This document shows positions 24,616 through 28,711 of a stretch of 38,350 nt of DNA, in pieces. The stretch is from an uncultured Syntrophaceae bacterium (GTDB lineage: Bacteria; Desulfobacterota; Syntrophia; Syntrophales; UBA4778). Position numbers and translations under genes: made by a program. The notes under the pieces are model-generated. The model was not told the origin of the DNA. It saw nothing but the letters and a program-made list of their open reading frames with translations, and did no database searches. Location of the stretch: positions 1 through 38,350 of the forward strand of contig CAZKYN010000001.1 of assembly GCA_964556675.1 (NCBI GenBank), given 5' to 3'. Position 1 is the stretch's first letter; every line of letters starts with the position of its first letter.

Positions 24616-26856
24616 TCAGATGAAATCAGCCGGAGTATCTATCATGCGAAATTCGTGTTTCTCCCATTCTTCCACATCAAAATTTTCCAGGTAAAATAGC
24701 ATGGGCCTCCAATCGCAGCTTTCGCCGCATCCAAAATAATAATTTTGGAAATGCCTGTTCAAGGAAATAATTACCTGGTTAAAAGACGGGTACTCGCCGT
24801 TTTCATCTGTCAGGATGACTCTGTTGTCCGGAGAGGCATTATGCGTCAAAAATTGGTGTGTTGCATACCAGAAGTATTCATAATTGTCGTCACATTTACT
24901 ACACCGGCAACCCATAGGCTCTCCGCACCAACCCCCAAACCATTTACCTCCGCGATTCCAGCATTCGGAGTAATCACCCGAAACATGATACACATATTTT
25001 ATCTTATTTATTTCTTTGATGTGGGGTTCTCTGAAGCAGGGATACACAGCGTAACTCCCATCCCATGTCTTTTCATGCACAAACGTATACTGCAGAACCT
25101 TGAGCCCCGAAAAATCAAAAACATCATCATTGCCCGGGACTGAGGATAGCGTCCGGCCTTTTTTCCATCCAATCCTCTGGACGCCAATCCCATCGACATT
25201 TACAGCGGACTGTCTGAAACTGATTTTTTTTCCCGAATAGTCGGCTTCGCATGGGGTTTCATACTGATTTATGTATACGCAACCCGGTCCGCTTGACCTT
25301 GTCCAGAAGCTGAACAGATTATAGCCGTTGCCCCCTTCATAACTGAGATAAATTGTCGCGGGGAACTTGACGCCCTTGAATGGGCCCACTTCATAGGGTT
25401 TATCCGAGGTAGATACAATTACCGTTTCCTTGCCGTCCGCGTCTACAAGTTTGACCTGTTTTGCATATTTGGGGGTTATCCCGTTGCATGTGATGGAAAT
25501 ATAAAACTCGTCGGAGCAGAATGCCACATTACCCGCAACAACGGCGTTGCTTTCGCTTCCCATCCTGCCCTTGAATACCACCAGGAACTTTGCGCTCTGC
25601 TCGGCATCGGTGGGCGCCTTTTCAAAGGTGAAATTCGGGCTCTTGTTGTTTCCGGAACGGGTCGAGCCCAGCGCATAACTGCCGCGCCACACGCATGTCC
25701 TCTCAAGGTTCTCATCCGTATAAAAGATCTCAAATGAGCCTTCCAGGTCTTCGCAAAAGTCGTTCACGATCTGAAATTCATGTTCGGAATCTTCCGCTGC
25801 GACCACGGCGATATTTCCCCGGAAAAAATAATTCAGCAGACCCGCCGAGTATCCGGCGGCCCTGGGCAGCAGTTTTTGCCCATAATCGCGGTTGCACGCA
25901 TCGTCCAGTATCAGGCAATGGCGCTGCAGACTCGGCCAGAAGCCCAGGTATATATAAAGCCTGCCCGCGGCGGCAAAATGCTCGATTACTTCTCCATTCT
26001 GTATCTTTCTGAAATAAATCCTTTTATAACCGTTCCCGACATCTTCCGCGTACTCCTGTGTGTCCGCCCGCCGGGGCAGCGGCTGATAGTGCGCATCCGA
26101 GGCATTGAAGCTTTCGGTGAATATGGTGTCGTCGCTTGCGAAATTGGCATTCGTGTATTCCGCCAACCCCTGGTCCGTGTAGACCGAAGGGTTGGAGCCG
26201 TTGTATTGACCCGTATCGAAGAACCGCGTTATCGGGTCGAACCCGTACGGGGCAACGCTCGTATCGACTGCCGGGAACACGACCAGGGATATTCCAGTAT
26301 TATAATTGGCCCATTTCTCGAAGGAGTCGCTCAAAGGATGGGCGTCGTTTCTCACGTGGGCCGGGGACGCGCAGTCCTGCACGAGGTGCATGACCTGCCC
26401 CAGGGATTTGAACATCCCGGCAAAGTGGCTGTCGCGGGCTGATTTACTCTGTGATGTCAGGGCATAATAGAAACTGTCCCGGGCGGCCTTCCAGGAGAAT
26501 TCGTTCTTATAGTCCTGCGCCCATACGGAAGATGACTCCCCGCTCATGAGATCATTTAAACCGGCAACAGGCCACGATTTGAGAGGATTGTGGAAGTGAT
26601 TGAGAGGCCGGAGGTAGTTATCTTCTTCCTTGGAGCCGGTTTTGAGCCACTCATCTAATGTTTGTCCATTAAGAAGATCTAAATTCGAAATTGATAGTTT
26701 TCTCAAGAAAATCGAATCTGATATTATTGAGTTAGAGAAAGCTAAATAAGTTATTTCTTTATGGGTGGTATCTATAAAAGAATAGGCTTCAGAATTCCAT
26801 AAAACTGGAACAGAGATTAGGACATGAATTATTAAAAATAATCTTCTTTTTTTCAT
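24616..26856 (-). CDS. secreted zinc-dependent phospholipase C / P1-nuclease-superfamily-like protein with a large uncharacterised Cys-rich C-terminal region
   Basis: 746-aa ORF with a signal peptide (…WNSEA-YS). HFHNP and MHLVQDCASPAHVRNDAH (H-x3-D-x5-H) parallel HFYDP and HYLGDVNQPMH of Bacillus cereus PLC. Residues of about 350-746 have no motif I recognise and end in CWNRGGKWFGGWCGEPMGCRCSKCDD...GCGESCDW. The start overlaps the upstream stop (TAATG). Confidence 0.75.
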   Translation of the reverse strand: MKKRRLFLIIHVLISVPVLWNSEAYSFIDTTHKEITYLAFSNSIISDSIFLRKLSISNLDLLNGQTLDEWLKTGSKEEDNYLRPLNHFHNPLKSWPVAGLNDLMSGESSSVWAQDYKNEFSWKAARDSFYYALTSQSKSARDSHFAGMFKSLGQVMHLVQDCASPAHVRNDAHPLSDSFEKWANYNTGISLVVFPAVDTSVAPYGFDPITRFFDTGQYNGSNPSVYTDQGLAEYTNANFASDDTIFTESFNASDAHYQPLPRRADTQEYAEDVGNGYKRIYFRKIQNGEVIEHFAAAGRLYIYLGFWPSLQRHCLILDDACNRDYGQKLLPRAAGYSAGLLNYFFRGNIAVVAAEDSEHEFQIVNDFCEDLEGSFEIFYTDENLERTCVWRGSYALGSTRSGNNKSPNFTFEKAPTDAEQSAKFLVVFKGRMGSESNAVVAGNVAFCSDEFYISITCNGITPKYAKQVKLVDADGKETVIVSTSDKPYEVGPFKGVKFPATIYLSYEGGNGYNLFSFWTRSSGPGCVYINQYETPCEADYSGKKISFRQSAVNVDGIGVQRIGWKKGRTLSSVPGNDDVFDFSGLKVLQYTFVHEKTWDGSYAVYPCFREPHIKEINKIKYVYHVSGDYSECWNRGGKWFGGWCGEPMGCRCSKCDDNYEYFWYATHQFLTHNASPDNRVILTDENGEYPSFNQVIISLNRHFQNYYFGCGESCDWRPMLFYLENFDVEEWEKHEFRMIDTPADFI
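26170..26580. repeat. 411-bp perfect direct repeat, copy in the full-length PLC-like gene
   Basis: Identical by eye to 27424-27834. The offset is 1254 bp (418 codons, in frame). Both copies are G+C-rich and are flanked by A+T-rich sequence. Confidence 0.85.
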
Positions 26857-27419
26857 TATTCGACCTCTGGAATAGTTTCTAATTTAAGTCCACTGCGTTC
26901 TTTATTGATCTCCCTAATCAGGAGCTTTTGATATTTACTAGGGAAGATTCCACGTGTTCCTAAAATTGATTTGATCTTATCTTCCGATGAAACTGCCTTC
27001 CGTAATTTGAGAACAACCTCATCACTCTGAAGGAAACCATATTTTATAAGATGTGGTTTAAACCACATTGAAGATCTTATGGGACCGTATCCGGCCTTAT
27101 AGGCGATGAAATAGGGTTCTTCATTGGTACTGCATATCGGGTTGAAATTCATGGGTGGGCCTTTGATAAGAAAGAAACCATCCTTATCCGTTAAGGTCTC
27201 CCGGGTATCAAAAAACCTTCCATGTTGAAACGGGCACCGCTGCGTCCATTCCATATTTAGTACCGCCCCCTCTATCGGTTCGCCCGTATCCGCGTCGACA
27301 ATTCTTCCCTTGTACTCGGCTGCATTGCCTTGGGCAATTATTGCGAAGAAAACGGCCGCAATTAAAACAGGCAATACGGAATATGCTCGTTTCATCCGCT
27401 TACTCCTTTTCAATTCCAA
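26856..27419 (-). CDS. secreted carboxypeptidase-regulatory-like domain protein (partner A)
   Basis: 187-aa ORF with a signal peptide. YKGRIVDADTGEPIEGAVLNM is the first strand-turn-strand of the CarboxypepD_reg/transthyretin-like fold. The gene is a paralogue of 28101..28646. Confidence 0.65.
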   Translation of the reverse strand: MELKRSKRMKRAYSVLPVLIAAVFFAIIAQGNAAEYKGRIVDADTGEPIEGAVLNMEWTQRCPFQHGRFFDTRETLTDKDGFFLIKGPPMNFNPICSTNEEPYFIAYKAGYGPIRSSMWFKPHLIKYGFLQSDEVVLKLRKAVSSEDKIKSILGTRGIFPSKYQKLLIREINKERSGLKLETIPEVE

Positions 27420-28104: not shown

Positions 28105-28646
28105 AATCCGTCACTTTCAGATCTAGTGTCAATTTTAAGCCTTTTGCATTCTTTATTGATTTCCTTCACTAAAAGCTTTTGAAACTTGAATGGAAAAGAG
28201 CCGATTGTTCCAATTGTTGAATTAATCATTTCTTTCGATGAAATTGCCTTCCGCAATTTTAGAACAACTTTATCATCTTCAAGAAAACCCATTTTCATCA
28301 GATTGGGTTTAAACCACATTGAATACCTTATGGGAACGAAACCAGCCTTGTATGCGATAAAATACGGGTCATCCTCGGTCCAGCAAATAAGACTGAAATT
28401 CATGGGAGGACCTTGGATGATAAAAAAACCTCGATTGTCGGTTAAGGTTTCTCTGGAATCAAAAAACTTGTCATACCCAGGCATGCACCATTGCTGCCAA
28501 CTCATGTTGAACACAGCTCCGTCTATTGCTTCGCCTGTATCCGCGTTGACAATTCTTCCCTTGTATTCGGCAGCATGACCTTGGGCAATTACAGCCAATA
28601 AAATGGAGGCAATGAAAACAGGAATTATTAAATAAGCTCTTTTCAT
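28101..28646 (-). CDS. secreted carboxypeptidase-regulatory-like domain protein (partner B)
   Basis: 181-aa ORF (MKRAYLIIPVFIASILLAVIAQGHAAEYKGRIVNADTGEAIDGAVFNM...). It is collinear with the 187-aa paralogue at moderate identity. Confidence 0.65.
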   Translation of the reverse strand: MKRAYLIIPVFIASILLAVIAQGHAAEYKGRIVNADTGEAIDGAVFNMSWQQWCMPGYDKFFDSRETLTDNRGFFIIQGPPMNFSLICWTEDDPYFIAYKAGFVPIRYSMWFKPNLMKMGFLEDDKVVLKLRKAISSKEMINSTIGTIGSFPFKFQKLLVKEINKECKRLKIDTRSESDGL

Positions 28647-28711
28647 CGCTTACTCCTTTTCAATTCCAAGCCCAGTATGTGCGTATCAGACGGATTGATG
28701 CCGGTACTGCT

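Follow-up and report, generated by a model that had tools for sequence, protein, structure and literature searches.

Why should two copies of the front end of one operon, which appear to be close to saturation at synonymous sites elsewhere, be identical over exactly 411 nt? The question is raised by a contig of an uncultured Syntrophaceae bacterium (Desulfobacterota; CAZKYN010000001.1 in assembly GCA_964556675.1), which was analysed over its complete length of 38,350 nt (hereafter the window). In it a short leader, a gene for a small secreted protein and the 5' part of a gene for a secreted protein resembling phospholipase C (PLC) occur twice in tandem. An earlier note on this DNA proposed that recombination between the two 411-bp repeats could replace, in a single step, one small gene and the adjoining N-terminus of the PLC-like protein by the other. 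Our analysis points to a related but different answer, to which we assign a probability of roughly 0.7: a tandem partial duplication of a conserved operon, whose 3' arm has recently been homogenised, in a family where such 5' cassettes are exchanged.

All genes of the locus lie on the minus strand, in the 5' to 3' order leader, small gene B, truncated PLC-like gene B, leader, small gene A and full-length PLC-like gene A. The features, with E-values from the family profile hidden Markov model (HMM) or from Pfam, are:

28647-28670, minus strand: leader at the 5' end of unit B, 24 nt including a Shine-Dalgarno sequence, the same as in unit A
28101-28646, minus strand: small partner gene B, 181 aa (family HMM E=2e-52; P0122)
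27400-28104, minus strand: truncated PLC-like gene B, 234 aa (HMM positions 1-264, E=1.3e-74)
27424-27834, minus strand: truncated-gene copy of the 411-bp repeat (codons 91-227 of B; synonymous divergence pS=0)
27421-27423, minus strand: duplication junction, 3 nt (AAA) separating the 411-bp tract from the leader of unit A
27397-27420, minus strand: leader at the 5' end of unit A, 24 nt
26856-27395, minus strand: small partner gene A, 179 aa from ATG (CarboxypepD_reg 4.9e-4; P0121, 100%)
24616-26856, minus strand: full-length PLC-like gene A, 746 aa, with an alpha-toxin-like N-terminal domain of ~500 aa and an uncharacterised C-terminal part
26170-26580, minus strand: full-length-gene copy of the 411-bp repeat (codons 93-229 of A)
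24583-24596, minus strand: terminator-like hairpin with a T-run, 20 nt past the PLC-like stop codon

A BLASTN comparison of the window with itself aligns 26170-27420 with 27424-28670 at 80.3% identity over 1256 columns and agrees, together with the open reading frames (ORFs), with the tandem unit of leader, small gene and PLC-like 5' part that had been described. The perfect repeat and its offset of 1254 nt (3 x 418) are likewise exact: a repeat finder and base-by-base extension both give identity between 26170-26580 and 27424-27834 over precisely 411 nt. The weight that had been placed on an offset divisible by three was nevertheless unnecessary, because any crossover within homologous coding tracts keeps the frame, whatever the distance between them. 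The leader has the same sequence in both units (CTTGGAATTGAAAAGGAGTAAGCG on the minus strand) and is homologous to coding sequence of a longer small protein at the related locus L001 (LESKRSKPVKRAF in L001, LELKRSKRMKRAY in the window); an in-frame TTG at 27419 would provide small gene A with an alternative start and a product of 187 aa. The truncated PLC-like gene B possesses its own start codon and signal peptide. Its frame leaves the 411-bp tract at TAC ACG GAC CAG, reads through the AAA of the junction (ACGGACCAG, then AAA, then CTTGGAATTG) and stops seven codons past the junction, within the leader of unit A, so that the protein ends in SVYTDQ-KLGIEKE, as had been read before. No terminator-like site was seen between the two units, such a hairpin being present only after the full-length gene, which suggests that unit B is probably co-transcribed with unit A. 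A promoter scan returned 13 sites versus 8.6 +/- 2.9 expected, i.e. chance level.

The history of the two units was read from Nei-Gojobori counts of nonsynonymous (pN) and synonymous (pS) differences in blocks of 30 codons. Between PLC-like genes B and A the successive pN/pS values are 0.39/0.71, 0.29/0.73 and 0.13/0.70, followed by 0/0 in four blocks; between small genes B and A the overall values are pN 0.20 and pS 0.56, with block pS of 0.35-0.82 throughout. The pattern is that expected of gene conversion, pS being 0.00 in four consecutive blocks of 30 codons and 0.70-0.73 in the 90 codons before them. The diverged parts of the two units have thus long evolved apart under purifying selection, with synonymous sites near saturation. 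Because synonymous divergence falls from this level to zero at the 411-bp tract, the tract is best read as the product of a recent gene conversion or a recent crossover, not of a young duplication, and protein-level selection is excluded as the cause of the identity because synonymous change is absent as well. In the ~60 nt adjoining the tract there are five differences, all read as synonymous (the mismatch count over 26570-26629 is 6), which suggests an older, staggered conversion with other end points. Unit B does not behave as a fast-decaying pseudogene, since it is as close to the outgroup L001 as unit A is (46% versus 47% identity in the PLC N-terminus, 38% versus 40% in the small protein). 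This comparison, of the dN/dS type that the earlier note had recommended, bears out its view that the mosaic is neither a simple young nor a simple old duplication. Of the causes it had named, gene conversion or a maintained recombination substrate, the conversion or crossover class agrees with the pS profile, but perfect arms are not a maintained feature of the architecture, because two related arrays described below (L036 and L048) have no conserved tract.

The change in G+C content along the units had also been taken as a sign of recombination. The variable segments are indeed G+C-poor and the repeats richer, and the two variable segments provide the only 300-nt stretches below 38% G+C in the 38 kb (window mean 54.4%, standard deviation 6.2%). 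The switch does not fall exactly at the identity boundaries, however: the drop lies ~20-70 nt beyond the boundary at 26580, where similarity goes from ~90% to ~57%, and at the other boundary of the full-length copy (26170) there is no switch in composition. Moreover, the single-copy orthologue in L001 has the same dip, and the first 90 PLC codons are G+C-poorer than the rest of the domain in 57/57 family loci (mean difference 0.079; 0.21 in the window). Because the dip is found in L001 and in all these loci, it is an intrinsic trait of the gene pair, unusually strong in the window, and not a signature of repeats or recombination; the mosaic composition is therefore lost as an argument for the latter. 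For the same reason a G+C boundary marking foreign DNA was ruled out. Candidate causes are amino-acid composition, translation coupling, or exchange among lineages of low G+C content. The 3' half of the small gene is also G+C-poorer at every locus examined; in the window it forms, with the first ~90 PLC codons, the G+C-poor segments 26581-26900 and 27835-28200.

The PLC-like protein of 746 aa has more than 1000 homologues in a protein search, mostly in metagenome-assembled genomes (MAGs) of Nitrospirota/Thermodesulfovibrionia, Desulfobacterota and Rokubacteria, and the family has 388 matches among species-representative genomes. Family databases gave little guidance. The PLC-like window proteins have no Pfam match at E<=0.1, so the curated threshold of PF00882 is not reached, and no NCBIfam match was obtained for the PLC-like window protein at any threshold; neither it nor the small proteins match PADLOC anti-phage defence models at E<=0.1, the small proteins have no Pfam, NCBIfam or PADLOC family beyond a sub-threshold CarboxypepD_reg match, and a single-protein sequence search of the PDB with the PLC-like protein found no match. 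One homologue (P0030) bears a precomputed PF00882 match, and a profile of 43 family members matches the Listeria phospholipase C (8cqm_A of 8cqm) with E=0.0036 over a region spanning the HFxNP and HxxxDxxxPxH motifs. An AlphaFold (AF2) model of PLC-like A is confident over residues ~30-505 (predicted local distance difference test, pLDDT, mostly >85 over residues 30-445). Foldseek searches with this model retrieved 2wxu, 1ca1 and 1olp (E 2.6e-5 to 7e-4, probability ~1.0), together with the B. cereus and Listeria PLCs, the TM (template modelling) scores being low since the query has 746 aa. Based on the profile match over the motifs and on the best structural matches, to Clostridium alpha-toxin and the B. 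cereus PLC, the label "PLC-like" appears justified for the predicted fold and motifs. As in zinc PLCs and the Clostridium perfringens alpha-toxin (PF00882), a helical fold with the zinc site is followed by a beta-sandwich, and HFxNP and HxxxDxxxPxH align; unlike in those proteins, the conserved domain comprises ~500 aa with extra beta domains and is followed by variable C-terminal regions. Residues H87, H89, H157, D161 and H167 are nearly invariant across the family alignment, and the truncated fragment of the window retains H32, D79, H87/H89, H157, D161 and H167, all within residues 1-185, which we regard as putative zinc ligands.

The small protein consists of a signal peptide, a beta-sandwich of the transthyretin/CarboxypepD_reg/CnaB type and C-terminal helices (model pLDDT 91); a fold search returned only generic transthyretin/CnaB beta-sandwiches, with no functional clue and no known immunity family. 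Both the PLC-like and the small proteins carry Sec-type signal peptides. Among 84 sources (79 loci of species-representative genomes together with Logan and ENA loci; the prefix L marks locus numbers), at least 66 have the small gene as the direct upstream neighbour of the PLC-like gene, so that the two genes form a conserved operon. The closest relative is L001, an orthologous locus with a single unit, whose PLC is 63% identical and whose gene order (LuxR, 306 aa, small, PLC) is that of the window. We found no literature on this family by title or abstract (phospholipase C, Nitrospirae, carboxypeptidase regulatory-like).

Other arrangements of the pair were seen as well. L017 (9340-17225) and L032 (5248-12343) contain two complete small and PLC-like pairs in tandem or near-tandem, and several MAGs have two or three separate family loci (e.g. 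L008, L056 and L060 in SKS1.bin124). In L025 (3-4790) and L026 (3-9191) giant ORFs of 1595 and 3062 aa, which weakly match the HMM of the CarboxypepD_reg-like small protein, lie directly upstream of the pair. In L008, L040, L042 and L063 the PLC-like gene is split into two adjacent ORFs that follow one another along the HMM; frameshifts, stop codons or sequencing errors are the likely cause, and these cases differ from the duplicated arrays.

Is the duplicated front end peculiar to this contig? When all ORFs of the fetched loci were searched by HMM, arrays in which a small gene and a truncated PLC-like gene precede a complete pair turned up in no fewer than 6 of 79 other genomes. Arrays of this kind may interrupt short-read assemblies, so that their frequency is probably underestimated. 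The loci with truncated copies are:

L034, L036 and L048: one extra unit each, upstream of the complete pair
L039 and L051: two extra units each (up to three units in all)
L054: at least one extra unit, cut by the start of the contig
L026: a truncated PLC-like copy, downstream

Every small gene in every array is intact. The truncation points lie inside the MHL/VED motif (at the slash) in L051, 10-15 residues past the HxxxDxxxPxH motif in L034, L036, L048 and unit 2 of L039, around GLAEYTNANF in the window, unit 1 of L039 and L026, and near HMM position 389 in L054. Since they differ in this way, the arrays are independent events rather than one inherited array, and a site-specific duplication mechanism was ruled out. 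Loci of the kind that the earlier note had proposed to look for thus exist, and three of them (L034, L039 in units 2 and 3, and L051) share with the window a U-shaped profile of nucleotide identity: 80-100% in the arms (the small gene's 5' half together with the conserved PLC arm), where pS dips and the longest perfect runs reach 93 and 115 nt, versus 40-65% in the core (the small gene's 3' half plus the initial ~90 PLC codons). A conserved tract is missing from L036 and L048. All truncated copies are open ORFs, for which a substitution-only simulation gives a neutral probability of 0.0004-0.066 per copy. Two close relatives of the small genes (P0123 and P0125) come from very short contigs of 1.2-1.4 kb, and the contig of L087 ends ~238 codons into its PLC-like gene (9108-9821), close to where the unit boundary falls in the window.

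Several truncated copies are chimeric in their relationships, the variable part being closest to a full-length gene elsewhere and the conserved part to the neighbouring full-length copy. In L034 the core is 56% identical to L066 versus 49% to its own copy, and the arm 65% to L066 versus 91% to its own copy. One exchange between species is documented by L050 and L051, two different species representatives that are syntenic, with downstream flanks 89% identical. The L050 contig opens with 885 nt that run from the 3' part of the small gene into the 5' part of an intact PLC-like gene of 852 aa; this stretch is 91% identical to unit 2 of L051, where the PLC-like copy is truncated, and only 72-78% identical to units 1 and 3; beyond these 885 nt L050 runs into a body orthologous to the full-length gene of L051. 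Whether a deletion or an insertion was involved, the boundary of this cassette falls within the conserved arm, as the model of the earlier note requires. The recurring arrays, the profile of arms and core in L034, L039 and L051, and the L050/L051 pair give indirect support to cassette exchange.

For the window itself, recombination between the repeats would join the variable part of B, through one 411-bp copy, to CAGGGGTTGGCGGAA, with the loss of 1254 bp. No such deletion variant, no hybrid and no full-length allele of type B was found in any collection searched. Exact look-ups of the 746-aa and 234-aa PLC-like proteins, small B, small A and the 333-aa protein encoded at the start of the module found no match; JGI metagenome contigs, scanned with the 234-aa protein, gave two distant relatives only, and none of them carried the 411-bp region or peptides of the module; and the B-specific N-terminal 110 aa had no match, and hence no B-type allele, in a set of 5.8 billion proteins. 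A single-protein scan of genome contigs also gave no match, although an alignment-based scan did find family loci. The recombinant foreseen earlier (small B, the N-terminus of B and the common body) would indeed be in frame and the one-step switch is mechanistically possible; the searches of public data yielded no trace of either, and the deletion would be a one-way loss of cassette A and not a reversible switch. Both PLC-like products are absent from the collection of 5.8 billion proteins, in which the two small proteins, LuxR and an RND (resistance-nodulation-division) pump are present.

Under the explanation that we prefer, the upstream unit (small B and PLC-like codons 1-227) would be an orphan 5' cassette, arisen by tandem partial duplication or by displacement, and the downstream unit the complete operon, whose PLC codons 93-229 would have been homogenised very recently by conversion or crossover to give the 411-bp tract up to the junction. 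In the family at large the conserved arms, i.e. the 5' half of the small gene and the conserved PLC helices, would recombine, and the core formed by the C-terminal half of the small protein and the N-terminal ~90 aa of the PLC-like protein would stay diverged and move as a unit, so that over evolutionary time cassettes would be exchanged, displaced or deleted. Demonstrated are the structure, the contrast in dS, the recurrence, one inter-species exchange of a cassette and the presence or absence of the module between strains; we infer, beyond these, that recombination between the 411-bp copies takes place in this population and that selection retains the array. Several points weigh against this explanation. 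The tandem structure rests on one assembly, no recombinant was encountered, and L036 and L048, which are saturated throughout, show that conversion is not universal. Any tandem duplication from upstream of the small gene into the PLC gene yields this architecture, so recurrence may partly reflect tolerance and not selection. Finally, the argument from open frames is void if the cassettes were only recently displaced from intact genes, as is suggested by those truncated cassettes that are closest to full-length genes of other genomes.

The array could instead be kept for its products, with the extra small protein and possibly the 234-aa helical fragment as functional paralogues (for instance with a second partner or inhibitor specificity, or as a decoy) and with the 411-bp identity as incidental concerted evolution. 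This alternative, which we consider worth keeping in mind but on balance improbable, would account for small genes that are intact in all arrays, for truncated ORFs that remain open despite saturated dS, for the putative zinc ligands retained in the window fragment and for the probable co-transcription of unit B. It agrees less well with the L051 fragments, which stop within the MHL/VED motif, with L036, which is without the D and H of the motif, and with the lack of the nearly invariant GLAEYTNANF segment and of the beta-sandwich domains in every fragment, which together make it unlikely that the fragments are enzymes. A maintained switching device, as suggested in the earlier note, in which the 411-bp repeats are kept in order to delete partner A and express a full-length enzyme headed by B, is in our view clearly unlikely: the in-frame recombinant is structurally possible, arrays of up to three units recur, arms are homogenised in four arrays, the L050/L051 exchange is consistent with switching, repeat-flanked presence and absence occurs at this locus (for the 116-bp pair described below), and recombination between main and orphan Rhs genes was shown experimentally with 522 bp of 95% identity (PMC3967940), yet the deletion is irreversible with cassette A not archived elsewhere, only two units are present, the old arrays L036 and L048 lack the conserved tract and public data contain no variant. 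Nor is unit B a silent cassette: it comes with a ribosome-binding site, a start codon and a signal peptide of its own, and it lies inside the operon. That two strain alleles were stitched in tandem by the assembler, or that diverged copies were collapsed or polished into a false tract, is very improbable, although the window is a metagenome-assembled contig, conspecific strains vary at the locus and short-read assemblers cope poorly with a perfect repeat of 411 bp. Neither parental flank has a k-mer in common with the junction CAG-AAA-CTTGG, which therefore needs real reads, the truncated ORF closes neatly in the leader, and the same architecture, including perfect runs of 93-115 nt and dips of pS, is seen in at least six independent assemblies from different groups. 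A mixture of tandem and deleted molecules would yield the same assembly graph.

The closest analogue among known systems, mirrored to the 5' end, is provided by the Rhs/CdiA loci with a main and an orphan toxin-immunity module. In both, a truncated fragment, with its adjacent small partner gene, lies beside a full gene and shares with it a tract of high identity, the variable end of the protein and the partner act as one unit, and arrays of several orphans occur. In Salmonella, 522 bp of 95% identity allow homologous recombination that joins the Rhs orphan to the main gene, with loss of the resident module (PMC3967940). Unlike in Rhs/CDI (contact-dependent inhibition) systems, which have a variable C-terminal toxin and a downstream immunity gene, the variable part here is the N-terminal ~90 aa and the partner gene is upstream; the variable part comprises the first helices of the catalytic domain and not a separate toxin domain, and the orphans are upstream too, keeping their start codon, ribosome-binding site and signal peptide. 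Rhs/YD, filamentous haemagglutinin, type VI (T6SS) and type V (T5SS) secretion features are absent, and no genes for secretion or delivery (T5SS, T6SS or type VII, T7SS) were recognised in the Pfam labels for L001/L002, L087, L088-L091 and the scanned window genes. A relation of toxin and immunity between the two proteins would be hypothetical. It is conceivable, though rather doubtful, that the arrays represent a mirror-image polymorphic effector system, in which the C-terminal half of the partner and the N-terminal ~90 aa of the enzyme form a co-varying interface and orphan cassettes kept upstream are brought into the expressed gene by recombination within the conserved arms, thereby changing partner/effector specificity.

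Concerted evolution of tandem paralogues offers a second parallel, with an abrupt tract of zero synonymous divergence in old paralogues that ends where homology ends, and with slowly evolving segments as the homogenised ones; it differs in that one paralogue here is a truncated fragment and the pattern recurs in many lineages of one family. In the Neisseria pilE/pilS silent cassettes partial copies also share conserved segments with an expressed full-length gene. The cassettes here, however, are few (one extra unit), translatable and within the operon, and neither a dedicated recombination signal nor non-reciprocal transfer was observed. We found no description in the literature of an N-terminal (5') cassette system in anaerobic Nitrospirota or Desulfobacterota. 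The analysis defines an uncharacterised and widespread two-gene operon, encoding an alpha-toxin-like secreted protein and a transthyretin-like partner, whose front end behaves like a cassette that can be exchanged, orphan copies of it being kept upstream. If partner and N-terminus prove to be cognate, the logic of orphan modules in polymorphic toxins would extend to the 5' ends of genes and to poorly studied anaerobes such as Syntrophaceae-like bacteria, Thermodesulfovibrionia and Rokubacteria. The locus also teaches that a perfect repeat within diverged paralogues is best interpreted via synonymous-site profiles, and that a local dip in G+C may be conserved across a family and need not be a scar of recombination.

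The operon is part of a larger module that is itself flanked by a perfect repeat, formed by the following features:

29915-31207, minus strand: PAS-PAS-LuxR (GerE) regulator (Pfam PAS_4 1.4e-30, GerE 3.1e-14), syntenic beside the module in L001
29874-29989, no strand: 116-bp perfect direct repeat, LuxR-side copy, with the last 75 nt of LuxR and 41 nt downstream
28712-29713, minus strand: first gene of the module, secreted Glucodextran_B/PKD-like protein of 333 aa (Pfam Glucodextran_B 1.1e-7)
24421-24536, no strand: distal copy of the 116-bp perfect direct repeat, an orphaned piece of the 3' end of LuxR

A homologue of the 333-aa protein occupies the same position in L001 and L087. The two 116-bp copies are 5453 bp apart and flank the whole module. 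A JGI contig from a conspecific metagenome (Ga0248168_1039385, L004), 99.9% identical over 2.4 kb, has an empty site without the 5453-bp module, LuxR being followed by the repeat and directly by 24536 to 24234, joined at 29874; a second contig of the same sample (L086) continues from 24237. These conspecific contigs carry two small lipoprotein-like genes (125 and 155 aa). Presence and absence flanked by repeats is thus documented at this locus, for the 116-bp pair and not for the 411-bp pair. In relatives whose LuxR genes are 86% identical in nucleotides, the content downstream of LuxR differs:

L089 and L090: nothing
L088 and L091: rubrerythrin and a NiFe hydrogenase cluster
L001: single-unit module and other genes

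The module is accordingly strain-variable cargo at a hot spot between convergent genes (window 23198-29915). An integrative element at a tRNA gene was ruled out: the window has no tRNA and no Rfam match, and none of the nine window proteins compared with Pfam has an integrase-like domain. Two further repeated regions lie elsewhere in the window. A 54-nt direct repeat of 87% identity (1936-1988 and 19261-19314) connects distant intergenic or gene-end regions, and a pair of paralogous MamS/MamX-like genes (31377-31665 and 37291-37583; 146 and 150 aa) is 66% identical in nucleotides.

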